DNA of 57,746 nt, taken from positions 1 through 57,746 of the IMG/VR virus record IMGVR_UViG_3300014502_000007; one strand, written 5' to 3'. A program made the position numbers and the translations under genes. Below, piece by piece: positions 849 through 33,646 of this stretch (position 1 is its first letter; the number at the start of each line of letters is the position of its first letter). Under the pieces are notes generated by a model. It had not been told where the DNA came from and did no database searches. It worked only from the letters and a program-made list of their open reading frames with translations. Source of the DNA: a virus (taxonomy: Duplodnaviria > Caudoviricetes).

Positions 849-3551
849 TCACCCCATACTCTTCATCAATGTGGATACAGACACACCTAATGCATCAGCA
901 ACCTCAGCCTGCGTGTATCCAGAGTCAAGCATTGAACGTGCTCTACTCTTCTTTGATGTTGTCATGACCATAACCTTTTTTGGCGTGGCCAACTTCTTAA
1001 TCTGATCTATGTCACCGTTGTTAAGAACCTTCTCTAGTTGATCTTTACTAATGGCGCCTGCTTGTATGGCTTCCCACTCTTTACTTGTTAGTATGATCTT
1101 TGGTTTCCTGGCCCCGGTTCTTTCACGTGCTGCTTCTAGGGCTTGAAACCTAATCTTCTTTATCTCGGCGGGTTCCATGTCTGCATTAGCGGCCTTCTTA
1201 GCAGCAAAGTTAGTGTTTGCCAGAACCTGTGCTTGCCTTTCAAGCGGTGCGTTCCTTAAAGCAAGATCCAACTTAGCTTTAATAGACTTAACCTCACTTG
1301 AATACACCTTCTTTGCTGACGGTTCAACCTTATTATACTTTACATGAACCATCTCTAGTCGCGCAGTGTTGGCTAGACCCTTCAATTTGTTAGAGTGATC
1401 CGCATAGATCTTCTCTATTGGAGTACCTGATGAAAGGGTATGCGCATTTTCAGTCTCGACCAATTTAAGAGAATGTTGCTTGTTAACTATTAGTTTCTCA
1501 GTTACCTTGCCAGTCCTCTTGTTAGTTGTAGTCTTAATGTAAGACTCTCCAGTTGGCACAAAGACAAGTTTTCCAGTCTTCTTGTCAATTGGCCCACCCT
1601 CTTTTGCTGAACGAGCCTTATATTTAGGAACATCTATTCTTGCTGTAGCTCTAGAGATAAGCGTTGACGCCCCAGCACGAGAACCGCCTTGATAGTCCTT
1701 CTTAAGTTGTGCTATATTATTATCACTAGCGGATAATTTCCAATTTAGTTTATGTTTTTCCGCATCAATAACAACCATAGAATGCTTAACTGCTCGAGCA
1801 AGTTCAGCGTGGGATGCTCCTCGAATAGTCATGTCTGTAATTAGGTTAGAGATCTTTCCCATCTCAACACCTTTAGTTCGGGTGTCCATAACCGTCATAC
1901 CATCATATTTTTTATACAATTCTTTAGGTTTAAAATCTTTCAACTCTGCTAAAGCCGGTGATGTCTTGATCGTATGTCTATTGTTTGGAATAACAAGAAC
2001 AGAATCGCCATCAAAGTCAGCGCCAGAAAGTCTCTCAGCAACCTTTGAGTTTATACCTATAGCATCTTCGGGTCGACCAAGAAGTTTCTTAGACTGAGGA
2101 TGGTTGTTATTTACGGTAAGTTCTGGAATCTCAAATGTTCCACCATGCGGATAGCGAATTAAGGCAACACGTTCACCATTACGGAATTTGGGCGCATAAA
2201 CCTCAGTATCTTTCAAACTATCAACCGGAAGAATAACATGCCAACTCGAACGAGGAAGAGCTGCCGCCTTAAGGTGAACTGCTGATGAATCGGCAGAATC
2301 CGCGAAAGTTTTCAATAATTTTGCGCGAACAACAGGGTTTGTCAGTGCTGATATGCCATCGAGTTCAGCCTTCTTTTTTTCATAGGTCATGGCTAACTGC
2401 GATTTAGCAAAAACAGAACTTTGTTTAGACAACATCTGAGACGAGAGACTCTTCGAATACTTACCCCAACCACCCTCTTCACCAGAACCCGGCTTTGTTC
2501 CAACCAAATTCATTGCTGAGGTAACGTGTTCTTTACCATTAGAATCTTTAGCTTTTATCTGATGAACGACGGCTCCGAATGGGTTACCTTCATCATCTGA
2601 TACAGGCTTCATAGCATCAAGTTTATTACCCGTATCATCTTTACTTGTGTTGAATTCAAGATCTGTTCCTTTAGGTAGACCATCTTTATACATGGCCATA
2701 CCCTTCATATAATGGGTACCATCAACAGCAATACGAACTTGACCATAAGGAGTAGACCCCAAAGAAACATCCGGTACACCAGGTCGGACATAAATTACAC
2801 CATCAGCCTTTGATCCACCTTGGTTTGCATAACGAACCTTAATTCGATCTGAATTTACCTGGATCGGAGGAAGAAGACCAGACCAAGACTTTCCACCATC
2901 ATCAGAGTAATCTGTAATAGAATGAATCTTATCTTTGTTGGACACGATGTCACGGTATGTGGTTCCAGGAGGAGCTAAAACCCTAATGTTAGTTTTCTGA
3001 TTTCCTCCAGTACCAAGTTGATCAACCTGAACTGGGTGTACGGCATAACCATTTACCTTCATAACTTCAATGGCTTTACCAAGTTTGTCTTTGCTAACGT
3101 TTAGATGATATTCAACACCAACCCCAACATCGACAAACCCTTTCTTTGCTACTTGGTCTTTCAACATATTGACTGTTCCCATAAGAGACTCAGCTTTTAG
3201 TTTCTGACCAGGAAGAAGCAACGAACGAACCGAGGATTCGTTTATGTGCATTTCTCGACCAATAGCACTAGTACTCATACCGGTATCACGAAGACGCTGA
3301 GCCTGACTAATGTCTGCCTGCTTCTGAGAACTCTTATACATCAACTTCCTGGCTTGAAGTTCACCTCTGGTCATTCCAAGACCTTTAGCAATCTGAGTGT
3401 CATTCAAACCATGTCTATGAAGATCAGCAACATGGTCAAAGAAAGTCTTACTTCGCATATCTTCAGGATGTTCACCTGATCCCCAAGCATAGCGACCAGA
3501 TTTATGAAGAGTGCCGAAATGCATGAGGTAATCTTCTTCATTAATTATCAC
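849..3551 (-). CDS. Putative single-chain two-barrel (DPBB) DNA-directed RNA polymerase with terminal HTH motifs
   Basis: GADFDGD at aa 510-516 (nt 2004-2024), upstream RYPH, downstream GKISNL and VIDAEK; HTH-like segments at both ends (DTQIAKGLGMT, TSAIGREMHINESSVRS, TQAEVADALGVSVSTL). Confidence 0.75.
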   Translation of the reverse strand: MIINEEDYLMHFGTLHKSGRYAWGSGEHPEDMRSKTFFDHVADLHRHGLNDTQIAKGLGMTRGELQARKLMYKSSQKQADISQAQRLRDTGMSTSAIGREMHINESSVRSLLLPGQKLKAESLMGTVNMLKDQVAKKGFVDVGVGVEYHLNVSKDKLGKAIEVMKVNGYAVHPVQVDQLGTGGNQKTNIRVLAPPGTTYRDIVSNKDKIHSITDYSDDGGKSWSGLLPPIQVNSDRIKVRYANQGGSKADGVIYVRPGVPDVSLGSTPYGQVRIAVDGTHYMKGMAMYKDGLPKGTDLEFNTSKDDTGNKLDAMKPVSDDEGNPFGAVVHQIKAKDSNGKEHVTSAMNLVGTKPGSGEEGGWGKYSKSLSSQMLSKQSSVFAKSQLAMTYEKKKAELDGISALTNPVVRAKLLKTFADSADSSAVHLKAAALPRSSWHVILPVDSLKDTEVYAPKFRNGERVALIRYPHGGTFEIPELTVNNNHPQSKKLLGRPEDAIGINSKVAERLSGADFDGDSVLVIPNNRHTIKTSPALAELKDFKPKELYKKYDGMTVMDTRTKGVEMGKISNLITDMTIRGASHAELARAVKHSMVVIDAEKHKLNWKLSASDNNIAQLKKDYQGGSRAGASTLISRATARIDVPKYKARSAKEGGPIDKKTGKLVFVPTGESYIKTTTNKRTGKVTEKLIVNKQHSLKLVETENAHTLSSGTPIEKIYADHSNKLKGLANTARLEMVHVKYNKVEPSAKKVYSSEVKSIKAKLDLALRNAPLERQAQVLANTNFAAKKAANADMEPAEIKKIRFQALEAARERTGARKPKIILTSKEWEAIQAGAISKDQLEKVLNNGDIDQIKKLATPKKVMVMTTSKKSRARSMLDSGYTQAEVADALGVSVSTLMKSMG

Positions 3552-11805: not shown

Positions 11806-12194
11806 TCGGTATCTTTCACAAAGGTTGGTTTAAACCGGAGAGTAAATGATAGTGGGAGAAGGATGTTATACCTAGCGCATAACACTTAGTCCTCCTCCCA
11901 CTACCTTCATTCGCTGCCGTATGCTCCATGCAACAGGCAATTGAGTAATGACTTGGAGTAGTCAATCCTCTCTGCTCCCTCGCGGGATAATAGTCCACGA
12001 ACAGGTGTTTTTACAACTTACGCTTATCAGCCGTCGCCGATACACGCCTTCGGTGTTATTCCTTCACCGCTCACGCCACTACAGAACAAGTGCACCAGGG
12101 TATTAGCGTCTCATGGGACAATCCCTGTTGTGCTACCGTCTTTTTACTCATTCTGTAGTGGCCGCTCTGAGCCTAAGAGGCTGTTTATACTCAC

Positions 12195-12404
12195 TCAGAC
12201 GAGTTCCTTCGAACGAAACAGAGCATTGAGCTCATCGATAGCCGAATTCAGCTCAGCACCAACTCGCTCTTGATAGGTTATCTCAGCTTTTACACCAACG
12301 ATAACTAAACCAACAACGACAGTTCCAACACCGACCAGAATAATTGCATCTTCGTGGCGTCGAGCCCACAACTTGAAGCGTTCGTACTTAGACTCTGGTA
12401 TCAT
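12195..12404 (-). CDS. Small membrane protein
   Basis: GGGAG RBS; one TM segment. Confidence 0.75.
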   Translation of the reverse strand: MIPESKYERFKLWARRHEDAIILVGVGTVVVGLVIVGVKAEITYQERVGAELNSAIDELNALFRSKELV

Positions 12405-12690: not shown

Positions 12691-12744
12691 TTGAAGCTCC
12701 TATATAAAAGGACTAAAAATTTAAGACCATATAATGGTCTCTTC

Positions 12745-12769
12745 ATTATAAGCGGTGTTTTTCTTGCGA
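12745..12769 (-). promoter_or_regulatory. Phage promoter motif followed directly by a mini-hairpin and T-tract
   Basis: TCGCAAGAAAAACACCGCTTATAAT then GAAGAGACCAT-TAT-ATGGTCTTAAATTTTT. Confidence 0.8.
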
Positions 12770-26979: not shown

Positions 26980-27004
26980 ATTATAGGGCATGTTCTTCTT
27001 GCGA
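26980..27004 (-). promoter_or_regulatory. Phage promoter motif TCGC-N15-TATAAT
   Basis: TCGCAAGAAGAACATGCCCTATAAT. Confidence 0.85.
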
Positions 27005-27025
27005 GGTGGGCACATGTTTCTCCTT

Positions 27026-27112
27026 GGGGAGGGGAATGCTCGGCTGTCGTTTATAAGTCAGCATCCGGAATAGGGCGAGACCCTAAGAAAGGACCCTTGC
27101 CGACTCCCACCT
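27026..27112 (-). ncRNA. Candidate structured RNA
   Basis: Intergenic; stems GGGAG/CTCCC, GTCGGC/GCTGAC, TAGGG/CCCTA. Confidence 0.4.
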
Positions 27113-27127
27113 TTGCAAATATGGAGG

Positions 27128-27661
27128 TTACTCTTTTGAGTTCTCAGCAATTCTTGTCTTCATGGCCTCAACCAATTCCTCACGAGTCATATCTTGAGGA
27201 CGCTTTGGACCCTTGATTTCTTTCTTTGGTTCCTCGGGAAGCGAGACATCCTGAAGGATTGTCCCTTTGAGAACGGAGGTGTCGGTGTCAGAAGTAATGT
27301 TGAATCCATCAGGGACCACCCCGTTGAAGAATTGCAACATGGCCTTTTCATCACTAACAAGTTCCATGAAAAGTTTAGAATATGCCTCGGTGCCCATGAA
27401 GTGTTGAATTAGTTCAGGTGACTTTTCGAAACTCTTGTTATCGGCATTGCGAACGCCATATGCCTTAGTCAGAATCTCTTCGAATGCATCAACAATTTCC
27501 TGATTATTATCGGCCGCAACGATTTGCTTGAGATACGAGGACAAACCACCTTTCGTACGAAGTTCCCATTTGGCAAGTTCCGCTGTGAAAAGGTGGAAAT
27601 AGAAGTCCTCGGTGAGCATGTTACCGTCGAGGTCTGGGTATGTAATAGTCTTCTTGAACAT
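27128..27661 (-). CDS. Conserved phage hypothetical protein
   Basis: KKTITY.D.DG, EDFYFHL, AYG, F..TEAYSKLFMEL; TAATG overlap. Confidence 0.85.
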   Translation of the reverse strand: MFKKTITYPDLDGNMLTEDFYFHLFTAELAKWELRTKGGLSSYLKQIVAADNNQEIVDAFEEILTKAYGVRNADNKSFEKSPELIQHFMGTEAYSKLFMELVSDEKAMLQFFNGVVPDGFNITSDTDTSVLKGTILQDVSLPEEPKKEIKGPKRPQDMTREELVEAMKTRIAENSKE

Positions 27662-28026
27662 TAGAGCCTTTCAGAGATAGGAAGGTATGAAGCTTGAGAG
27701 ACATCCTTCTTAGACACGCACTCATTCAATTCCTCATTGACCACTGCCTTAAGCAGAATGAGATAATTGATGTGGTCAGTAATTTTCTCTTCCCATACCG
27801 CCATAGGAAAGACATTACCACTTTGACACATGTCAAATATGGAAATGGTATGCTTGGCCAACATGCCGGCAACGGCCTGACGAACAGTACAACCCTCGAG
27901 TTCTGCTGCAACTTTGAAGTTGTGGAGACGGTCCTCGGTGGCATATTCCTTAGCCTTAACCACCAGGGTGTCCCGACACATGTCGATTTGTTCATCGAAA
28001 ATATGTTCAAAATTATCTGCATCCAT
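27661..28026 (-). CDS. All-alpha nucleotide-modification-associated (DUF1599/Nmad1-like) protein
   Basis: KAKEYA.EDRLHNF, KH and EKITDHINYL motifs. Confidence 0.6.
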   Translation of the reverse strand: MDADNFEHIFDEQIDMCRDTLVVKAKEYATEDRLHNFKVAAELEGCTVRQAVAGMLAKHTISIFDMCQSGNVFPMAVWEEKITDHINYLILLKAVVNEELNECVSKKDVSQASYLPISERL

Positions 28027-28467
28027 TTAGACCCAGTTCTTGTCAATGTTGTGGTTGATTTTCCAGATACCAAACTTAGTTTTGGCCTTGCGGTAGTACT
28101 TCTTTCCCTCAGCAAGTGCTACCTTGTCGAGACCTGTCTGGTGTGCTACAACTCCAATGGTGACGATGATGAGAAGTCCAGTAGAGAGCCCTCGACGGTC
28201 TCCTCGAAGAAGGGCTTTTGCATTCTTACCAATCATATTCGATCGGTCAATGTGTTTGCGCTCCTTGGCAGCCTTTATGGCAAGGTTCGCAAAGGGCTGT
28301 TTGCTATAAGCCTTATTAAAAGCCTCGTTGTAGTTAGATATGTTCTCAACCTTGTGGGCGATCTCAGCCGAAAGCAACTTACGTCGCGTCCCAGCACCCT
28401 CACCGAAGAACAACTCCGCATATGCCCATTTTGCCGCGTCTTTAGCGGCGATTTTATTGATGTTCAT
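28027..28467 (-). CDS. Hypothetical membrane-associated protein
   Basis: AAGGAG RBS; FFGEGAGTRRKL motif. Confidence 0.8.
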   Translation of the reverse strand: MNINKIAAKDAAKWAYAELFFGEGAGTRRKLLSAEIAHKVENISNYNEAFNKAYSKQPFANLAIKAAKERKHIDRSNMIGKNAKALLRGDRRGLSTGLLIIVTIGVVAHQTGLDKVALAEGKKYYRKAKTKFGIWKINHNIDKNWV

Positions 28468-28479
28468 GGATTACTCCTT

Positions 28480-28665
28480 CTAGTGACCATTCACATGAAG
28501 CAAATGCTCTGCATCTTCTTCTTTGATCTCAACCCAGAAATTCTTATCCATGTCAATGTCGTAGAACTCTTTGTAGAGCTTTCCATTGAATCGGAAGATT
28601 GCTGGAGGATCTAATCGATAGATCTTGAACTGTCTAGACTGTTTCACACCAAGAAGTCCAGCCAT
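28480..28665 (-). CDS. Hypothetical protein
   Basis: GGAG RBS. Confidence 0.65.
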   Translation of the reverse strand: MAGLLGVKQSRQFKIYRLDPPAIFRFNGKLYKEFYDIDMDKNFWVEIKEEDAEHLLHVNGH

Positions 28666-28667
28666 AA

Positions 28668-28814
28668 TTAGTACTCCACTCCTGGGTGATCATGCTCAAA
28701 AGTAGCTTTCTTGAGTTCAAGTTTGGCTGTGAGATCCTTTATATACTTGATAATCTCGGGTCGATACTTAATGTAACACCAGCAGGTAACGAATCCGAAG
28801 GCAAACTTTTTCAT
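28668..28814 (-). CDS. 48-aa hypothetical protein (not in ORF track)
   Basis: GAAAGGA RBS; MKKFAFGFVTCWCYIKYRP... Confidence 0.65.
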   Translation of the reverse strand: MKKFAFGFVTCWCYIKYRPEIIKYIKDLTAKLELKKATFEHDHPGVEY

Positions 28815-28849
28815 GACAGTTCCTTTCAGAACATAATTGGGGTAAAGGC

Positions 28850-28882
28850 AAAACAGAAGACCTTGTTAGGGTCTCCTGCTTT
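28850..28882 (-). terminator. Intrinsic terminator, CTAACAA loop
   Basis: AAAGCAGGAGACC-CTAACAA-GGTCTTCTGTTTTGCC. Confidence 0.75.
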
Positions 28883-28904
28883 GTGAGCCGGTCTTGATGG
28901 GCAA

Positions 28905-29078
28905 TCAGACTTCGGTGGACAGAGCGTCAGCGATCTCGACGGGGCTGGTCTTCAACTTGACGACGACAACTACGGCGACGACGACAGCAAGTGCTGCGAC
29001 GCCAACGCGGATGGCATTGGTCTTGGTGAAAACCGACTTCGAGGGGAGGGCGGCGACGTTGTTGGTTTCTTCGGTCAT
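28905..29078 (-). CDS. 57-aa membrane protein (cassette gene)
   Basis: Leader GAGACCCCCTATGAAAGGAATTATC-ATG; Val/Ala TM segment. Confidence 0.8.
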   Translation of the reverse strand: MTEETNNVAALPSKSVFTKTNAIRVGVAALAVVVAVVVVVKLKTSPVEIADALSTEV

Positions 29079-29105
29079 GATAATTCCTTTCATAGGGGGT
29101 CTCTC

Positions 29106-29130
29106 ATTAGAGGCCATGTTTTTCTTGCGA
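29106..29130 (-). promoter_or_regulatory. Phage promoter motif TCGC-N15-TCTAAT
   Basis: TCGCAAGAAAAACATGGCCTCTAAT. Confidence 0.8.
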
Positions 29131-29150
29131 GGTTAACTTGGGTGTAACCT

Positions 29151-29930
29151 CTAATACGTGGTGTGACTCCGGTAATAGTCTCTTATTGGGGCCACATGGA
29201 ATGCGATGGAGATACACGGACGACTATCCTCAGACATACACGTCGAGAAATCCAACTCCATTAACTTATCTGTATTCCACCCAACCTCTTCAGAATTTGC
29301 GGTCGTTGGAATGCCGATCTTGTTGTAGAAGTCACTAAGAGAGGCGTAACCGTCATTGAGCACCAGGTAGTTGGTGTCGTTTTGACCTCTCTTCAACTCC
29401 TCCATACTACTCATGAAGTAGCGACCAGTGAACGCCTCATAACAGAGAACTTCCCCGCTACCTGTTATGATGATCTCACGTGCACCTACAGGGTCTCGAT
29501 TGATACGTTCTTGGGCGATCTCGTCCCGAACGATCTGTTCTTTTGGTGCTCCGATCTTCTCAATGACCTTCGTCTTGTACTCGGAGAAGGCTTTCTCAGA
29601 GATCGAATATGCAGCAGCAACTGCGGCGGCTCGTCGTGAACCAATCTTATTGGCTCCGATGATGCAAACTATCGTCAGGATTCCAGTGCCAATCGCTGGA
29701 ATATAAAACTTCCAGACGAAACGAGTACGCTCTTTGACTGTGGGCCAGCCATCTTCAGCTTTTCCACCAACCTCTTCCTCGGCATGAATGATCTCTGCAG
29801 CCTTGAACGTGGCCCTTCCTGTGAGATATGCGGTGGTGATGGTTCCGGTGACCCCAATTGCAGTCAAAATAGATGGCGAGTTGTCGATAGTCAGTTTTTC
29901 GACCTTTTTGAGAATACTAACCAAATTCAT
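29151..29930 (-). CDS. DUF6353-like protein (paralog)
   Basis: NSPSILTAIG, AAAYSISE, GRYF, SLSDFY and VGWN motifs; AAAGGA RBS. Confidence 0.8.
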   Translation of the reverse strand: MNLVSILKKVEKLTIDNSPSILTAIGVTGTITTAYLTGRATFKAAEIIHAEEEVGGKAEDGWPTVKERTRFVWKFYIPAIGTGILTIVCIIGANKIGSRRAAAVAAAYSISEKAFSEYKTKVIEKIGAPKEQIVRDEIAQERINRDPVGAREIIITGSGEVLCYEAFTGRYFMSSMEELKRGQNDTNYLVLNDGYASLSDFYNKIGIPTTANSEEVGWNTDKLMELDFSTCMSEDSRPCISIAFHVAPIRDYYRSHTTY

Positions 29931-29941
29931 TTTGTTTCCTT

Positions 29942-30055
29942 TCAACGCCGACGCATTTCACGAACAAAGATCCAAATCAACCACAAGCCTCCAGTAAGGA
30001 AGCACATGAAGACGTCGAGTAGAAAACTGAAAAGACCGTAACGTTTTGACAACAT
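29942..30055 (-). CDS. 37-aa membrane peptide
   Basis: AAAGGA RBS; LTGGLWLIWIFVREMR. Confidence 0.75.
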   Translation of the reverse strand: MLSKRYGLFSFLLDVFMCFLTGGLWLIWIFVREMRRR

Positions 30056-30081
30056 GACTTTTCCTTTGCTGTGAGTTGGCG

Positions 30082-30155
30082 AAAAATTAAGAGCACGATT
30101 CATCAGTATAGTGGTTGATGTTTCGTCTTTGCTTGGGGGCAAAGTTGGCTCTCTC
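30082..30155 (-). ncRNA. Candidate small RNA (74 nt)
   Basis: Starts right after the promoter motif; closing stem GAGAGC/GCTCTT; two inner hairpins; T-tract. Confidence 0.6.
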
Positions 30156-30180
30156 ATTATAGGGCATGTTTTTTCTGCGA
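30156..30180 (-). promoter_or_regulatory. Phage promoter motif TCGC-N15-TATAAT
   Basis: TCGCAGAAAAAACATGCCCTATAAT. Confidence 0.85.
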
Positions 30181-30183
30181 GGC

Positions 30184-30215
30184 AAAACAAGAGGCCTGGT
30201 TAGGGCCCCCTGTTT
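30184..30215 (-). terminator. Intrinsic terminator, CTAACCA loop
   Basis: AAACAGGGGGCC-CTAACCA-GGCCTCTTGTTTTGCC. Confidence 0.75.
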
Positions 30216-30223
30216 CCTGAGAG

Positions 30224-30388
30224 TTACTTCTGGTCGGAAGGATCCCCGATCTTGTCCTCTCCACTATTCAGTGAGTCCAAGAACTCCTGTGCTTCTATAC
30301 GCTGTTCAGGTGCCTTGAAGAAATCGTGAACCATCCTTTCTGCAAGGGCGGGGTCGTGGCCATAGTCACGCTCGAACTGTGTCACCAT
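30224..30388 (-). CDS. 54-aa acidic protein (not in ORF track)
   Basis: AGGAG RBS; MVTQFERDYGHDPALAERMVHDFF... Confidence 0.65.
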   Translation of the reverse strand: MVTQFERDYGHDPALAERMVHDFFKAPEQRIEAQEFLDSLNSGEDKIGDPSDQK

Positions 30389-30626
30389 CTTGGGTCTCCT
30401 TGGTGATGAGCATCCTGAATTGGGTGGGGTGTGCGCTCACGAAGAACTCGTAGGTCTTGTCGAAGTACTCTTTCGACACACACCTCCAGTTATCGGGGTC
30501 TTGAGGGTCCCTGATCAGGTAGTAGCCTTTGGCCTGATCGTAGTTCAGTCGCCCCTCTTCCTCCCGAAGCGGCATATCGAGGTATTTGTTGAAGGACTTC
30601 TTTGTGATCTTCAAGGCTTCCAGCAT
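30366..30626 (-). CDS. Hypothetical protein
   Basis: GAGGAG RBS. Confidence 0.8.
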   Translation of the reverse strand: MLEALKITKKSFNKYLDMPLREEEGRLNYDQAKGYYLIRDPQDPDNWRCVSKEYFDKTYEFFVSAHPTQFRMLITKETQDGDTVRA

Positions 30627-30635
30627 GGTTTCTCC

Positions 30636-30797
30636 TCAGATCATGTCGACTTCGACGAAGAAATCCTCGTCTTGGGTGTTAGCAAAGCGGTATTTCGCGA
30701 AGAAGTCCTCCTCAGTCAGTATCTCGTTGCTAGCGTTGTGGTCGTACGGGAAGAAGAAGTAGTCATACTTCTTATGCGCATCGTCAATTTCGGGCAT
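30636..30797 (-). pseudogene. Probable frameshifted small gene
   Basis: GGAGG-ATG MPEIDD...NEITD*; removing one A gives ...NEILTEEDFFAKYRF...VDMI, which ends at the next RBS. Confidence 0.4.
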
Positions 30798-30852
30798 AAT
30801 CCCTCCATTCAGACCGCGATCTTGTCTCGATTCGTCGTCGTGATCATGATCG

Positions 30853-31446
30853 CTAGGCCAACGGACCTGGGTTTGCGCGGCGACTTCGTCGATGAACTAG
30901 ACGGGTTTGCGCGGCGACTTCGTCGATGGTGTCGTTCAACTCGCGAAGATCTGAATCAAGACGAAGCATTTGCCTCTCAAGAACTTCAACTCGTGCTTGT
31001 GCCACGTCGAGCAGGTTTTCGAGATTCTGTATGGTCGCGTTACTCTCCGAAAGTTTGCCTTCTGAATCAGCGAGTCCACCTGCGAGTCTATCGCCCTTCA
31101 ACAATGCCTCTTTGAGTTCGGTTGACAGTTCTTGGATGGTCTTGTCACGCTCGGCAAGTTCCCGAGTAAGTTTTCCAACCAAGATCGCCGTGGACCTCTC
31201 AGAGACCGTCGCGGTCCTCCCAGTCCCCTTCTGGGTAACTTTCATGGTCGCAGGTTTCCTAGGCTTCCGTTCGACGGTGGTAACGGTTTGGGTTGGTGGC
31301 GTCGTCTTGTGATGAACCACCTTCTTGTAGTAGGTGCGTTTGACAGGCTGACCACCATTTGCGACTTTGGCTGCGGAACGTTCTCTTGAAAGGGCAGCCA
31401 TCTTCTCAGCATGAGCAGCAGGATCTTTGGGATATCCAGCAGGCAT
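30853..31446 (-). CDS. Basic N-terminus / coiled-coil protein
   Basis: AAGGAG RBS; heptad-rich C-terminal half. Confidence 0.8.
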   Translation of the reverse strand: MPAGYPKDPAAHAEKMAALSRERSAAKVANGGQPVKRTYYKKVVHHKTTPPTQTVTTVERKPRKPATMKVTQKGTGRTATVSERSTAILVGKLTRELAERDKTIQELSTELKEALLKGDRLAGGLADSEGKLSESNATIQNLENLLDVAQARVEVLERQMLRLDSDLRELNDTIDEVAAQTRLVHRRSRRANPGPLA

Positions 31447-31505
31447 GACAATCTCCTTATAATTAGTGTTGCTGTTTTGATAATGATGGTTCTTTAATAT
31501 TGGCG

Positions 31506-31598
31506 AAAAAGGAAAGACCTATTTCCAATCGTTCAATTTCATGTCACTGCATCTGCGGGTAGCGTGGCATTAAACGTTGTGGTTTAATAGATCTCTCT
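31506..31598 (-). ncRNA. Candidate small RNA (93 nt)
   Basis: After the promoter motif; 12-bp closing stem GAGAGATCTATT/AATAGGTCTTTC; T5 tract; no RBS-ORF. Confidence 0.65.
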
Positions 31599-31623
31599 AT
31601 TATAGGGCATGTTTTTTCTGCGA
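31599..31623 (-). promoter_or_regulatory. Phage promoter motif TCGC-N15-TATAAT
   Basis: TCGCAGAAAAAACATGCCCTATAAT, identical to the copy at 30156. Confidence 0.85.
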
Positions 31624-31626
31624 GGC

Positions 31627-31720
31627 AAAAAGAAAGGAGGTCACTGGTGTTGCTCGGGCCTTATAACTATGACGCGATTAGTCTTCGACATTACTATCTA
31701 AGATACCATAGTTTCCTTTC
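31627..31720 (-). ncRNA. Candidate small RNA (94 nt)
   Basis: Closing stem GAAAGGA/TCCTTTC; inner AACTATG/CATAGTT; T5 tract; only a 3-codon ORF. Confidence 0.6.
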
Positions 31721-31745
31721 ATTATAGGGCATGATTTTCTTGCGA
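31721..31745 (-). promoter_or_regulatory. Phage promoter motif TCGC-N15-TATAAT
   Basis: TCGCAAGAAAATCATGCCCTATAAT. Confidence 0.85.
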
Positions 31746-31748
31746 GGT

Positions 31749-31780
31749 AAAACAAGAAGCCTTGTTAGGGCTTCCTGCTT
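31749..31780 (-). terminator. Intrinsic terminator, CTAACAA loop
   Basis: AAGCAGGAAGCC-CTAACAA-GGCTTCTTGTTTTACC. Confidence 0.75.
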
Positions 31781-31964
31781 AGAGCTCCAGGTTATCCAGA
31801 GCGAACTTGATGTTGTTGACCGTGTTGTTCGTCTTCGTCTTCACTTCTTCCATCTCAGACTTCATCTTCCTAGAACCAACTAGCACAATGGCTAGAGTGG
31901 TTGTAGAAGCGATTAGGCTTAAAGAGGAAAGCGTGATGAGGACGACGGATGTCGTGGTGTTCAT
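31779..31964 (-). CDS. 61-aa membrane-anchored protein (cassette gene)
   Basis: Leader GGAGACCCCAACGAAAGAAAGGAACGAG-ATG. Confidence 0.8.
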   Translation of the reverse strand: MNTTTSVVLITLSSLSLIASTTTLAIVLVGSRKMKSEMEEVKTKTNNTVNNIKFALDNLEL

Positions 31965-31992
31965 CTCGTTCCTTTCTTTCGTTGGGGTCTCC

Positions 31993-32017
31993 ATTATAAG
32001 CCGTGATATTTATGCGA
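31993..32017 (-). promoter_or_regulatory. Phage promoter motif TCGC-N15-TATAAT
   Basis: TCGCATAAATATCACGGCTTATAAT. Confidence 0.8.
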
Positions 32018-32056
32018 GACCTTAGTCGAATTCTTCCTCCGCGGGAAAATTGAGGC

Positions 32057-32142
32057 AAACAAAATAGAAAGCCGTGGAACCTCAGTAGTCGAGGTTCGTT
32101 TTGGCCTGTCGATTGCTTACCTGTTCTAAGGGTATTCTATTC
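32057..32142 (-). ncRNA. Candidate small RNA (86 nt)
   Basis: Closing stem GAATAGAA/TTCTATTT; inner hairpins TACC/GGTA and GAACCTC/GAGGTTC; T-tract. Confidence 0.65.
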
Positions 32143-32167
32143 ATTATAAGGCATGTAAATCCTGCGA
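32143..32167 (-). promoter_or_regulatory. Phage promoter motif TCGC-N15-TATAAT
   Basis: TCGCAGGATTTACATGCCTTATAAT. Confidence 0.85.
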
Positions 32168-32170
32168 GAC

Positions 32171-32202
32171 AAACCTAAAGTCCTGGCTAGGGGCTGTCGG
32201 TT
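32171..32202 (-). terminator. Intrinsic terminator, CTAGCCA loop
   Basis: AACCGACAGCCC-CTAGCCA-GGACTTTAGGTTTG; resembles the 8525 terminator. Confidence 0.6.
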
Positions 32203-32210
32203 CTTGAGAT

Positions 32211-32354
32211 TCAGCGTTCTTCGTGGTCGAGAAGCCAAAGGTAGTATCGATTCGTTTCCTCTTCGAGGGCCGGGTCCTGACGTCGTGTCATACGTGTGTT
32301 GTTGACAATGACGTCGGAGTGGTCGACGAAGGAGGAGATTGGTGTATAAAACAT
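32211..32354 (-). CDS. 47-aa protein (cassette gene; start MFYTP)
   Basis: TAAGGA RBS after the promoter motif. Confidence 0.7.
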   Translation of the reverse strand: MFYTPISSFVDHSDVIVNNTRMTRRQDPALEEETNRYYLWLLDHEER

Positions 32355-32390
32355 TTTGGGGTCCTTAGTGTAGAATATGGTTGTGGTCTC

Positions 32391-32415
32391 ATTATATACC
32401 ATGTAAATCCTGCGA
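32391..32415 (-). promoter_or_regulatory. Phage promoter motif TCGC-N15-TATAAT
   Basis: TCGCAGGATTTACATGGTATATAAT. Confidence 0.85.
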
Positions 32416-32460
32416 TATGTTAGGCAAAAATTAGAACCCTTGTAAAGTGAGGAGCAAACA

Positions 32461-32501
32461 TAGAGGGCGTGCAAGAGTGTTTAGTTCTCACACGCCCTCT
32501 A
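32461..32501 (-). terminator. Long hairpin after the 95-aa gene
   Basis: TAGAGGGCGTG / CACGCCCTCTA, 11-bp perfect stem. Confidence 0.65.
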
Positions 32502-32532
32502 CATTTGATCTTCCTTTCAAGTGATCAGCACT

Positions 32533-32820
32533 TCATCGAAGTTTGAGCACAAAACTCAGGGCTTTCGAAGTCACGACATTTGCTCGCTCGAATCCGACGA
32601 TGATCAGAATTCCGAGGAGGTTTCCAGCGATGATGGCCATCGTGTCAGGACTTATTCCTTTAGGGCGATCTCCATCCCTTAGGGCATAAAGCTTGACTAG
32701 TTGGTCCGCCATCTTTGAATACTCTTCGGTATCACTCATTACCGAGTTCATCTCGCTGAGCAAGTCGTCGATAACTTTCTCAAGTCTTGACGGTTCATGC
32801 AGGGTCTTCTTAGTGAACAT
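32533..32820 (-). CDS. Membrane protein
   Basis: Leader GAGACCACCTATGAAAAGGAG; ISPDTMAIIAGNLLGILIIVGFE. Confidence 0.85.
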   Translation of the reverse strand: MFTKKTLHEPSRLEKVIDDLLSEMNSVMSDTEEYSKMADQLVKLYALRDGDRPKGISPDTMAIIAGNLLGILIIVGFERANVVTSKALSFVLKLR

Positions 32821-32846
32821 GCTTTCTCCTTTTCATAGGTGGTCTC

Positions 32847-32871
32847 ATTATAGGCGATGTTTAAACCGCGA
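32847..32871 (-). promoter_or_regulatory. Phage promoter motif TCGC-N15-TATAAT (first copy after the structural block)
   Basis: TCGCGGTTTAAACATCGCCTATAAT. Confidence 0.8.
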
Positions 32872-32886
32872 GCCCACCAACATGAA

Positions 32887-33198
32887 TTATTTGTTAACTT
32901 TGAAGACAATCTGGTTCTTCTTGTCTAGATCGTTTGGATCAGAGTTAAGGTTAAGTGAGAAAGTCTTCTTACCGTCTTCTTGCTGAATCACATCTATATC
33001 GCCGTCGGGTTCACCTTTAGAGTTGGTTGTCCAATAGGTGGCCTGGAACGCAACGATGGTTGCAATCGCTATGGTAAGGATCTCGACTGTTGTAAACCCA
33101 TCTGGTGCAGAAAGTTTAGCGGAACTTAGTAGAGAGACTAGCGCAGCAACATATGCTTTACTGGCTTTTGGGCTTAACATCGTCTTAATTACTACCAT
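32887..33198 (-). CDS. Putative holin
   Basis: Two TM segments (KAYVAALV..., ILTIAIATIVAF) ending YWTTN; at the end of the tail block. Confidence 0.55.
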   Translation of the reverse strand: MVVIKTMLSPKASKAYVAALVSLLSSAKLSAPDGFTTVEILTIAIATIVAFQATYWTTNSKGEPDGDIDVIQQEDGKKTFSLNLNSDPNDLDKKNQIVFKVNK

Positions 33199-33223
33199 TT
33201 TGACGCCTCCATCTGACTGTTCG

Positions 33224-33646
33224 TCACTCTTTGTTCAAAGTAGTTTCTAGTTCGGTGGCAGTCTTGTCCGCTTCGTCTGTTAATGCAGCGGCAGCAGCGG
33301 CGGCAGTTTCCTGCATGTGAATGTCAGCCGCAGCAGTTAGTTTAGCGATTGCTTTGAGACTCTCAGCAGCGAGAACAGCATCCGCCTCCAACTTGGCTCG
33401 AGCGATGGCCTGCAACTCAGTACGTAAGACGATTTCGCCTTCTTCGAGTCTCTCAATGTGTTGACCAATGGTCAATCCACTATTTGTCTTGAGTAGTTGG
33501 TTGTTCTGACGGGACTGAGCGGCAGCCTGTTTTGCCATCCATGCTGCAAACATCGCTGTTATAGATGTGATTACTCCGAGTATGATCGACGTCCAGTCGA
33601 GGTCAGCTAATGTTGATGTGTCTGTTACTAATGCAGTTGCGATCAT
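33224..33646 (-). CDS. Membrane protein (lysis-associated?)
   Basis: One TM segment plus an Ala-rich coiled coil; TNSG.TIGQ.I.RLE motif. Confidence 0.7.
   Translation of the reverse strand: MIATALVTDTSTLADLDWTSIILGVITSITAMFAAWMAKQAAAQSRQNNQLLKTNSGLTIGQHIERLEEGEIVLRTELQAIARAKLEADAVLAAESLKAIAKLTAAADIHMQETAAAAAAALTDEADKTATELETTLNKE

Follow-up and report, generated by a model that had tools for sequence, protein, structure and literature searches.

Promoter-linked RNA units with paired ends in a siphovirus-like genome: candidate products of a putative phage-encoded two-barrel RNA polymerase

We analysed a 57,746-base-pair (bp) stretch of tailed-phage DNA, IMG/VR record IMGVR_UViG_3300014502_000007 (here termed the window), in which four copies of a 25-bp promoter are each followed by a short non-coding unit that ends in a T-tract. 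We think it somewhat probable that these units, termed A to D, are real transcription units of a phage promoter which is read by the phage's own polymerase and which makes RNAs with paired ends, here called end-clamped RNAs. The enzyme that reads the promoter would most likely be a single-chain two-barrel polymerase of 900 amino acids (aa) with a DFDGD motif that is encoded in the window, and initiation would occur at, or within 2 nucleotides (nt) of, the G that follows TATAAT. The first bases of the transcript would then pair with the bases just before the U-tract. Such a clamp helix may hide the 5' end and, together with the U-tract, would make a terminator-like 3' end round a variable structured 'cargo'. 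Units C and D would be stand-alone small RNAs; in A and B the same device would serve as a leaky promoter-proximal terminator and 5' leader, with some transcripts reaching the operons behind it. As to a role in trans, our best guess, by analogy with the cargo of relatives, is that the RNAs may act as protein-binding decoys or regulators.

The promoters of the four units have the form TCGCA-N7-CAYG-N3-TATAAT, followed by GAGA-like bases, and all four are exact matches to the pattern TCGCRN7CAYN4TATAAT. When at most one mismatch is allowed, the whole window contains 13 matches on the minus strand, which carries all genes of the record, and none on the plus strand or in a backwards control; a shorter core pattern matches 8 times where 0.61 matches are expected. 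Nine of the 13 copies are located in a promoter-dense early region directly downstream of the lysis genes (Table 1). Most copies outside the units are of a messenger RNA (mRNA) type, with a Shine-Dalgarno sequence at +12 to +24 and a start codon at +23 to +36, counted from the first base past TATAAT. Across 127 copies the conserved elements are T-25CGCA-21, an A/T run, A-14CA-12, TATAAT (-6 to -1) and G+1AGA+4, the information at the pattern positions being inflated, as the set was chosen by pattern. Nothing is kept upstream of -25, where each position from -42 to -26 holds at most 0.22 bit. Moreover, the TCGCA block lies 14 bp from TATAAT, compared with 17 bp for a -35 box, and when a sigma-70 -35 hexamer was sought 16-18 bp upstream of the -10 position only 3 of the 13 copies in the window scored at least 4 of 6. 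With no bases kept above -25 and TCGCA at 14 bp, the promoter does not look sigma-70-like. The comparison thus supports a view in which TATAAT would be the 3' edge of a phage-specific 25-bp promoter rather than a sigma-70 -10 box. As a separate observation, the mRNA-type transcripts share a short leader, GAGACCCCUA(U/C)GAAAGGA, which is found behind the promoters ending at 26980, 29106, 9184 and 8848 and at many other loci, and whose conservation extends as far as Rhodococcus, Gordonia and Streptomyces phages.

A preliminary description of this region, made from its letters, had reported that the four promoter copies lead into a T-tract without a ribosome-binding site and open reading frame (ORF). 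This was borne out: the stretches measure 74, 93, 94 and 86 nt in A, B, C and D, respectively, and no Shine-Dalgarno or ORF signal lies between promoter and T-tract. The closing stems that it named are likewise present, since the minimum-free-energy (MFE) folds of all four RNAs, cut at the T-tract, include the closing helix, and its remark that different sequences share one architecture also holds, A to D being mutually unrelated in sequence. The probability that the 5' bases pair within the final 22 nt is 0.92-1.0 in A (nt 3-8), about 1.0 in B (nt 2-13), 0.94-1.0 in C (nt 1-7) and 0.5-0.71 in D (nt 1-8). Each 5' 14-mer was also set against the 18 nt that precede each of the other tracts of four or more T (T4+) on the minus strand. 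The true partner was beaten or equalled by none of 138 such segments for B and for C, by 3 of 137 for D and by 13 of 138 for A. Folds of whole units, flanks included, gave z scores of -4.3 for A, -4.6 for B and -4.5 for D. A fifth, minimal case elsewhere in the window consists of the promoter, a 5' hairpin (pairing probability 0.92-1.0), a U-tract and a ribosome site.

The units differ in what follows them. The next promoter downstream of D is reached within a few dozen nucleotides, and the U-tract of C directly abuts the upstream edge of promoter B. Unit B is the 5' leader of an operon headed by a 197-aa gene and unit A that of a small membrane-protein ORF followed by a 264-aa gene. Because the operons behind A and B have no other promoter, these two units must also serve in cis and be read through.

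Relatives were fetched by means of the 264-aa protein, which yielded 12 loci in IMG/VR (36-54% identity) and 28 in metagenomes (63% at most), and these share the promoter family of the window. Roughly one in four of their promoters leads, in place of a ribosome site, into a non-coding stretch that runs from GAGA(A/G)G to C(U/C)UCUC and then into 4-8 T. Together, some 35 end-clamped units were found across related IMG/VR, metagenome and cultured phages, including Rhodococcus phage ReqiPepy6, Gordonia phage Kerry and Arthrobacter phage Gordon; the 12.8 kb examined of Streptomyces phage Doxi13 contained none. The closest whole record, G004, whose polymerase is 66% identical, has five units with clamps of 10-16 bp and z scores of -2.4 to -7.4. 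A T-tract of 4-8 T lies 0-4 nt past the closing helix in 36 of 38 units and the other two have TTT. The helix of this terminator-like 3' end, however, spans 50-120 nt. A side observation concerns the bases beyond: GCC occurs within 3-8 nt after the T-tract in 8 of the 9 units of the window and the G004 lineage, and TTTTGCC also precedes many promoters. Overall it follows 16 of 38 units, compared with 20 of 139 T-tracts in the window, and it is limited to this lineage.

The position of the helix relative to the promoter was measured in two ways. One left the partner open and sought perfect 7-bp helices that join the 7-mer at a given position to any segment within 8 nt upstream of a T4+ tract. 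Among 38 non-coding units such helices start at +1 in 12, at -1 in 10, at -2 in 8 and at -3 and +2 in 5 each, with at most 2 at positions -14 to -4; the 104 mRNA-type promoters gave at most 2 at every position. The other used MFE folds of 36 units, started at -6, in which the outermost paired 5' base is -6 (2 units), -3 (1), -2 (8), -1 (7), +1 (3), +2 (1), +3 (6), +4 (1) or absent (7), part of the absent and +3 cases arising from the T-tract rule, which cuts the 3' strand. The closing helix hence starts within -3 to +4 in 27 of the 36 units, and from +5 to +12 its pair types differ between units (AU, GC, CG, UA).

Units of the same design and unrelated sequence precede the same small ORF, the 'GGLWLIWI' membrane protein behind unit A, in loci L002, L006, L012 and L021 and in G004, and the clamped leaders of relatives at this site differ in content. 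As far as the sequences tell, then, the clamp frame is conserved while the cargo turns over between relatives. Unit D has a copy in G004 that is 88% identical (query 333-421, E 4.6e-25); it stands behind a promoter at a different site, is the leader of a gene and has a longer clamp. Position 4 of its helix is changed on both strands, from U4:A to G4:C. The search of the five closest whole records matched D and promoters only. The core of D, GGTAAGCRATCGRCAGGC, also occurs in locus L004, within a long hairpin that ends a gene (E 7e-4); a search of IMG/VR for the core pattern returned eight stretches, two of which are the L004 phage and six of which are unrelated and apparently coding.

A more distant comparison is offered by Faecalibacterium phage FP_oengus, which has a Firmicute host and encodes a homologue of the 900-aa protein. 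Its coding strand holds all 11 copies of a 25-nt motif, CGCGAAAAAT.CA......CTTTATG, of the same length and layout as the promoter of the window. The TAnnnT hexamer present in the window and its actinophage-like relatives (TATAAT or TATAGT) is absent here: the TTTATG ending lacks A2 and T6 of the -10 box, and judged by these bases the motif cannot serve as one. Behind one copy lies a tRNA-like RNA (Rfam tRNA, 47.9 bits), which has its position 1 at the second base past the motif. If transcription started 7 nt downstream, this RNA would lose its acceptor strand. Another copy is followed by an RNA of about 115 nt that begins with GAAGGAAA and ends with UUUCCUUUUUC.

The 900-aa protein matches phrog_4291, 'RNA-dependent RNA polymerase', with 1235 bits. 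It has the catalytic DxDGD loop, in the form GADFDGD, and residues S509-D516 do not vary among the 71 homologues that were aligned. Over this catalytic stretch the Pfam family RdRP (PF05183) matches below its threshold (E 0.0056, 15.9 bits, cut-off 23.8), and an ESM Atlas cluster with RdRP, which scores 0.88, is a lead only. Searches of the PDB by sequence and by profile recovered nothing but a helix-turn-helix repeat. A T7-like polymerase was not detected either, as none of nine ORFs (eight longer than 500 aa, one of 448 aa) matches Pfam RNA_pol. Homologues of the 900-aa protein number at least 7998 at E 1e-10 or better, and tblastn found it in 250 phage records, including 95 of Arthrobacter, 55 of Gordonia, 54 of Streptomyces and 13 of Lactococcus phages. 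The source names of the homologues are mostly 'DNA-binding CsgD family transcriptional regulator' or 'helix-turn-helix protein'. Members of the family have been termed putative RNA polymerases based on HHpred and the DxDGD loop, and the accessible part of that account describes no promoter (bioRxiv 10.1101/842583). Our literature search likewise found no mapped promoter or start for this polymerase family. In IMG/VR, over 106 stretches contain an exact match to the promoter pattern. Among the 31 records of at least 40 kb with an exact match, 30 encode a homologue of the polymerase, as do all 20 of those that are at least 90% complete.

The region is present in 20 of 24 listed public runs, six being peat RNA libraries, and four RNA runs were examined as assembled contigs. 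Promoter-proximal contig ends are found at 30143 and 30146 (A), 31582 and 31575 (B), 31708 (C), 32375 (promoter 32391), and 32835 and 32832 (promoter 32847), which corresponds to +10 to +24 past TATAAT at five promoters; six of the ends carry adapter sequence. Contigs 31269-31582, 31292-31575, 31317-31628 and 31275-31708 extend from unit B into the 197-aa gene, and contigs 29830-30143, 29836-30146 and 29839-30185 cross the T-tract of unit A. Promoter neighbourhoods are therefore represented in the RNA libraries and read-through exists. One RNA run has a joint of 30155 to 31599, an assembly artefact caused by the 32 nt that are identical in promoters A and B. Contig depth, a crude measure, is highest for the mRNA of a 47-aa ORF behind promoter 32391 (539 and 138 in two runs) and is 3-115 elsewhere.

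The cargo of relatives gives some indication of what such RNAs may do. ReqiPepy6 (Rfam tRNA, 42.1 bits) and FP_oengus (ARAGORN 'tRNA-???') each have a tRNA look-alike with a 6-nt anticodon loop. Both, from phages of two host phyla, are promoter-driven and lie inside an extended leader-trailer helix, which in ReqiPepy6 forms a 13-bp extended 'acceptor'. A further RNA, termed F1, is about 110 nt long and has five helices, the conserved loops GAGACACGAAUG, AGUUUU.G.U.GG and AACCC, and no Rfam family; it occurs in Rhodococcus, Gordonia and metagenomic phages, serving as a leader in some units and standing alone in others. A covariance model (R1) found 12 matches at E <=5e-5 in the loci. In a model-fitted alignment of 11 members 96% of the cells are paired and covariation reaches 0.616, compared with 0.214 in shuffles (0 of 500 reach the observed value) and at most 0.127 when the partners are slid. 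Two alignments were used, one of 5 sequences and one model-based and fitted to the structure; 'helix 1' of the latter is an inner helix in distant members and has little bearing on the terminal clamp. The window itself has no F1 motif, the best R1 match (E 6.1) lying inside a coding region. The GAGACACGAAUG inside F1 is similar to the short leader of the mRNA-type transcripts, which we mention as an observation in its own right. In G004, finally, clamped RNAs contain hairpin arrays, one with a 27-nt unit in 3.8 copies, one with a 25-nt unit in 2.7 copies and one with 2 copies; the hairpins are of the type CCC-GNUAA-GGG, with loops GUUAA, GAUAA and CUUA on CCC/GGG stems. By analogy, this cargo suggests protein-binding modules, which could be decoys, sponges or nut-like sites. 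The decoy role raised in the preliminary description is thus hinted at by the arrays of G004 only. The antisense role that it had also raised is not supported for the phage's own transcripts: the longest complementary run, of 10-11 nt, equals that obtained with shuffled units.

Several results weigh against reading A to D as end-clamped products of the phage's own polymerase. Taken by itself, the helix of A is not significant. The fold of C, flanks included, is no better than that of shuffles (z -0.9), and with flanks the best fold of D has a competing pairing instead of the closing helix. A terminator consensus scan calls none of the four T-tract sites. Moreover, RNA contigs span the T-tracts of A, B, C and D, which are thus not efficient stops. 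None of the contigs ends at one of these T-tracts and no discrete small RNA was seen, although contigs and size-selected libraries are unable to reveal one. The contig ends fit a start at +1 as well as one at about +7, and the contig depths of 3-539, though closer to RNA than to DNA, come with uncontrolled DNA carry-over and no comparison with a silent stretch. The helix can be extended to U(-1):A in 16 of 36 units, which blurs the exact start, and promoters A, B and D score 10 of 12 in a sigma-70 scan (TTGYCT-18-TATAAT). Searches of 44 loci with blastn-short and nhmmer, and of the five closest whole records, returned no sequence relatives of A, B and C, so that covariation is not assessable for them. 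The assignment of the polymerase consists of a motif, a PHROG name, a sub-threshold Pfam match and a published HHpred result. Finally, the records that share the promoter are kin, which makes 30 of 31 a linkage and not a count of independent events, and the polymerase gene is the last one in the promoter-driven arm; the enzyme would therefore have to be injected or made beforehand from another promoter.

Set against these points, the earlier proposals fared unevenly. That TATAAT marks the start site of a non-host polymerase is the reading which best fits the comparative data, namely the promoter layout, the linkage to the polymerase-like gene, FP_oengus and the helix starts, which favour initiation at -2 to +1, although all of this is comparison and not end mapping, and the start site is a predicted one. 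The label 'stable small RNAs' suits the stand-alone units C and D better than the leaders A and B, which are read through, and bridging contigs exist for all four. Covariation in the closing stems of A to D amounts to the single U:A to G:C change in D. That the RNAs form an undescribed class agrees with our searches. Rfam gave no match to the units and, for 29900-32500 at E up to 10, five chance-level matches, all on the other strand. A literature search, which did not cover supplements or the ReqiPepy6 genome paper (PMC3020559), where promoters may be described, found no account of the promoter or of the RNAs.

Four other explanations have to be weighed. An unlikely but credible one takes the units as purely cis-acting leaders, that is stabilisers, attenuators or nut-like antitermination sites, in which the U-tract would be a pause or standby site and not the end of an RNA. 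A, B and most units of relatives indeed stand directly before a ribosome site and a gene with no promoter between, and in the window and many loci the first promoter unit upstream of the operon for the small membrane protein and the 264-aa protein is a clamped one. RNA contigs pass from units into genes at equal contig depth, the minimal case at 12744 consists of no more than a 5' hairpin followed by a U-tract and a ribosome site, and the CCC-GNUAA-GGG arrays of G004 may resemble lambda boxB. However, C and D are followed by another promoter and not by a gene, as are units in L001, L002, L004, L010, L013, L178 and FP_oengus; some cargos are tRNA-like, and F1 keeps its sequence and covarying helices in Rhodococcus, Gordonia and metagenomic phages whether it is a leader or stands alone. 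More clearly improbable, in our judgement, is an ordinary host sigma-A/sigma-70 promoter that starts about 7 nt downstream, with GAGA as its discriminator, TCGCA and ACA bound by a phage regulator, and stems that are due to chance or act only in read-through RNA. Early phage genes are usually transcribed by the host enzyme, and the perfect TATAAT, the 10 of 12 consensus score of three of the four unit promoters, the ordinary hairpin-plus-T terminators between the genes of the region and the contig ends at +10 to +24 are all compatible with it. Yet none of the 127 copies' conservation falls on a -35 box, TCGCA has the wrong spacing, and the FP_oengus motif ends in TTTATG with the acceptor stem of a tRNA-like RNA starting 2 nt on. 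Helix starts, moreover, peak at -3 to +1 in non-coding units only, with varying pair types and one compensatory change in D, and the promoter co-occurs with the polymerase-like gene in 30 of 31 records.

Two explanations remain. The closing helix could be a processing stalk of the kind formed by the leader and trailer of rRNA operons, from which a double-strand-specific RNase frees the cargo, so that the clamp would be no part of the working RNA. The 13-16 bp clamps of G004 and the 13-bp 'acceptor' round the tRNA-like RNA of ReqiPepy6 would suit this; the helices of the window, of only 6-12 bp, are short for RNase III, and no cuts are visible in the RNA contigs, which are not suited to reveal them. 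We regard the explanation as very improbable. Barely credible, finally, is that the units are functionless remnants of promoter-gene-terminator cassettes that lost their gene. The four sequences are mutually unrelated, A, B and C have no relatives and the fold of C is at chance level, as such remnants might be, but ordinary cassettes close with local hairpins and do not pair with the first transcribed bases. A helix anchored at +1 recurs in some 35 units but is not a feature of the 104 mRNA-type promoters, and the compensatory change in the helix of D hints at selection.

The proposed end-clamped RNAs and their polymerase can be placed beside known systems. Two-barrel phage polymerases have motifs of their own within -30 to +1 of mapped starts in Thermus phage P23-45 (bioRxiv 10.1101/2022.12.01.518664), and in Bacillus SPbeta transcription that depends on YonO starts upstream of a non-coding RNA lacking annotation (PMC5467207), as far as the accessible parts of these accounts go. 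Like P23-45 gp64/gp96 and SPbeta YonO, the candidate of the window would be a phage-encoded, sigma-free DxDGD two-barrel polymerase. Unlike them, it belongs to a different family with a helix-turn-helix at both ends and no solved relative detectable by sequence, and those same parts do not mention end-clamped RNAs.

Other systems show partial likenesses. T7-type late promoters, such as that of the phi10 leader, are compact, end at the start (..TATA|G..) and give purine-rich first bases (here GAGA), with a helix from +1 and leaky hairpin-plus-U stops, as the units of the window would; in these units, in contrast, the 5' bases pair across 50-120 nt of cargo, many units have no gene and none of nine large ORFs matches RNA_pol. 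Lambda PR'-tR' 6S, oop and N-boxB would share the order of promoter, short structured RNA and terminator, with genes reached by read-through, and lambda boxB leaders share GNRA-like pentaloop hairpins with the leaders of G004. The lambda systems act on the host polymerase via N or Q, however, neither of which was identified here, and several of our units stand alone, those of the window lacking repeated hairpins. Y RNA/YrlA, phi29 pRNA and 6S RNA likewise have a terminal helix of both ends, variable sequence and a kept shape, and YrlA has a tRNA-like module, as do some relatives; unlike these RNAs, the units have no Rfam match at E up to 10, and no Ro, Rtc or phi29-type packaging genes were seen in the window. 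CsrB/RsmZ sponges combine tandem hairpins in one RNA, as units of G004 do with 2 to 3.8 copies, but the CCC-GNUAA-GGG hairpins do not have GGA loops and are absent from the four units of the window.

As to its surroundings, the record is a whole or nearly whole virus, with a completeness estimate of 96%. Pfam matches among the large ORFs (large terminase, portal, prohead protease, tape-measure protein) make it siphovirus-like, and a primase-polymerase gene (phrog_4210) is present. ARAGORN found no tRNA genes in the window, megablast of 29000-33500 against phage records gave no match, and the 197-aa protein led to no IMG/VR relatives. Short hairpin-plus-T terminators separate the genes of the early region. 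At gathering score, the only Rfam match in the whole window is a self-cleaving Pistol ribozyme away from the units, placed between a stop codon and the start of the next gene about 540 nt downstream of promoter 12745. The 3' end of the 197-aa ORF has a perfect direct repeat with a spacing of 34 nt; as 34 is not divisible by 3, the tail of the ORF is put into another frame by the duplication. RNA contigs break at 30902, and the repeat may be a real duplication or an assembly effect.

Table 1. Coordinates of the features discussed (positions in the window, unless a locus of a related phage is named).
Feature	Position	Strand	Description
Promoter A	30156-30180	-	Exact match to the promoter pattern
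Unit A	30082-30155	-	74 nt; two inner hairpins, then AAUUUUU
Unit A closing helix	30153-30148 with 30094-30089	-	GAGAGC with GCUCUU
Small membrane-protein ORF	29942-30054	-	Behind unit A
264-aa gene	29151-29945	-	Behind unit A
Promoter B	31599-31623	-	With 7 upstream bases, 32 nt identical to promoter A
Unit B	31506-31598	-	93 nt; 12-bp closing helix of nt 2-13 with nt 76-87, then UUUUU
197-aa gene	30853-31446	-	Behind unit B
Promoter C	31721-31745	-	Exact match to the promoter pattern
Unit C	31627-31720	-	94 nt, stand-alone; U-tract 31631-31627
Unit C closing helix	31720-31714 with 31638-31632	-	GAAAGGA with UCCUUUC
Promoter D	32143-32167	-	TCGCAGGATTTACATGCCTTATAAT; exact match; sigma-70 scan TTGTCT-18-TATAAT, 10/12
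Unit D	32057-32142	-	86 nt, stand-alone; next promoter (31993-32017) after about 35 nt
Unit D closing helix	32142-32135 with 32069-32062	-	GAAUAGAA with UUCUAUUU, then a U/G-rich tract
Fifth, minimal case	12709-12769	-	Promoter 12745-12769, 5' hairpin nt 4-22, AAAUUUUU, ribosome site, 94-aa ORF
Promoter-dense early region	26980-32871	-	Five mRNA-type promoter copies, by pattern match
mRNA-type promoters	32847-32871, 32391-32415, 31993-32017, 29106-29130, 26980-27004	-	Each followed by GAGACC.. and a ribosome site
Candidate two-barrel phage RNA polymerase	849-3551	-	900 aa; N- and C-terminal helix-turn-helix domains
mRNA of 47-aa ORF	32106-32375	-	Behind promoter 32391
Pistol ribozyme (RF02679)	12146-12204	-	38.3 bits, gathering score 34.5
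26-nt perfect direct repeat	30869-30894 and 30903-30928		3' end of the 197-aa ORF
tRNA look-alike, ReqiPepy6	L013 3384-3456
tRNA look-alike, FP_oengus	L053 2900-2969
F1 members	L010 4722-4832, L040 133-243, L008 4238-4350, L014 1631-1736, L013 3519-3624, others
Hairpin arrays, G004	L179 789-890; L178 3849-3916, 3719-3803		Within clamped RNAs

A wider picture, which we put forward tentatively, is that of a large siphovirus clade, counting at least 7998 polymerase homologues, in which the early arm would be transcribed by a sigma-free, single-chain two-barrel polymerase that reads DNA with helix-turn-helix domains of its own and initiates at the 3' edge of the 25-bp promoter, with modular clamp-and-cargo RNAs as decoys or as antitermination modules for this non-canonical enzyme. 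The cargo would then comprise the tRNA look-alikes with 6-nt loops, the boxB-like arrays, F1 and the folds of A to D, the targets of decoys could be host RNA-binding defence or translation factors, and the fast turnover of cargo between close relatives would reflect an arms race.

If the units are indeed read by the phage's own polymerase, this would be the first promoter model with a predicted start for a polymerase family that is known as 'putative RNA polymerase / HTH protein' (HTH, helix-turn-helix). The family spans hundreds of cultured actinophages and thousands of metagenomic phages, and the model can be tested in cultured phages. It would also provide a rule for finding RNA genes, namely this promoter, no ribosome site and a helix from +1 that closes before a T-tract; current annotations list no such RNA except the tRNA-like RNA of ReqiPepy6 ('tRNA-OTHER'). 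For annotation, the same reading would carry the warning that even a perfect TATAAT is not necessarily a -10 box. Moreover, F1, the hairpin arrays and the tRNA look-alikes with short anticodon loops would be new structured RNAs without an Rfam family, which may bear on the conflict between phage and host or on termination by minimal polymerases.

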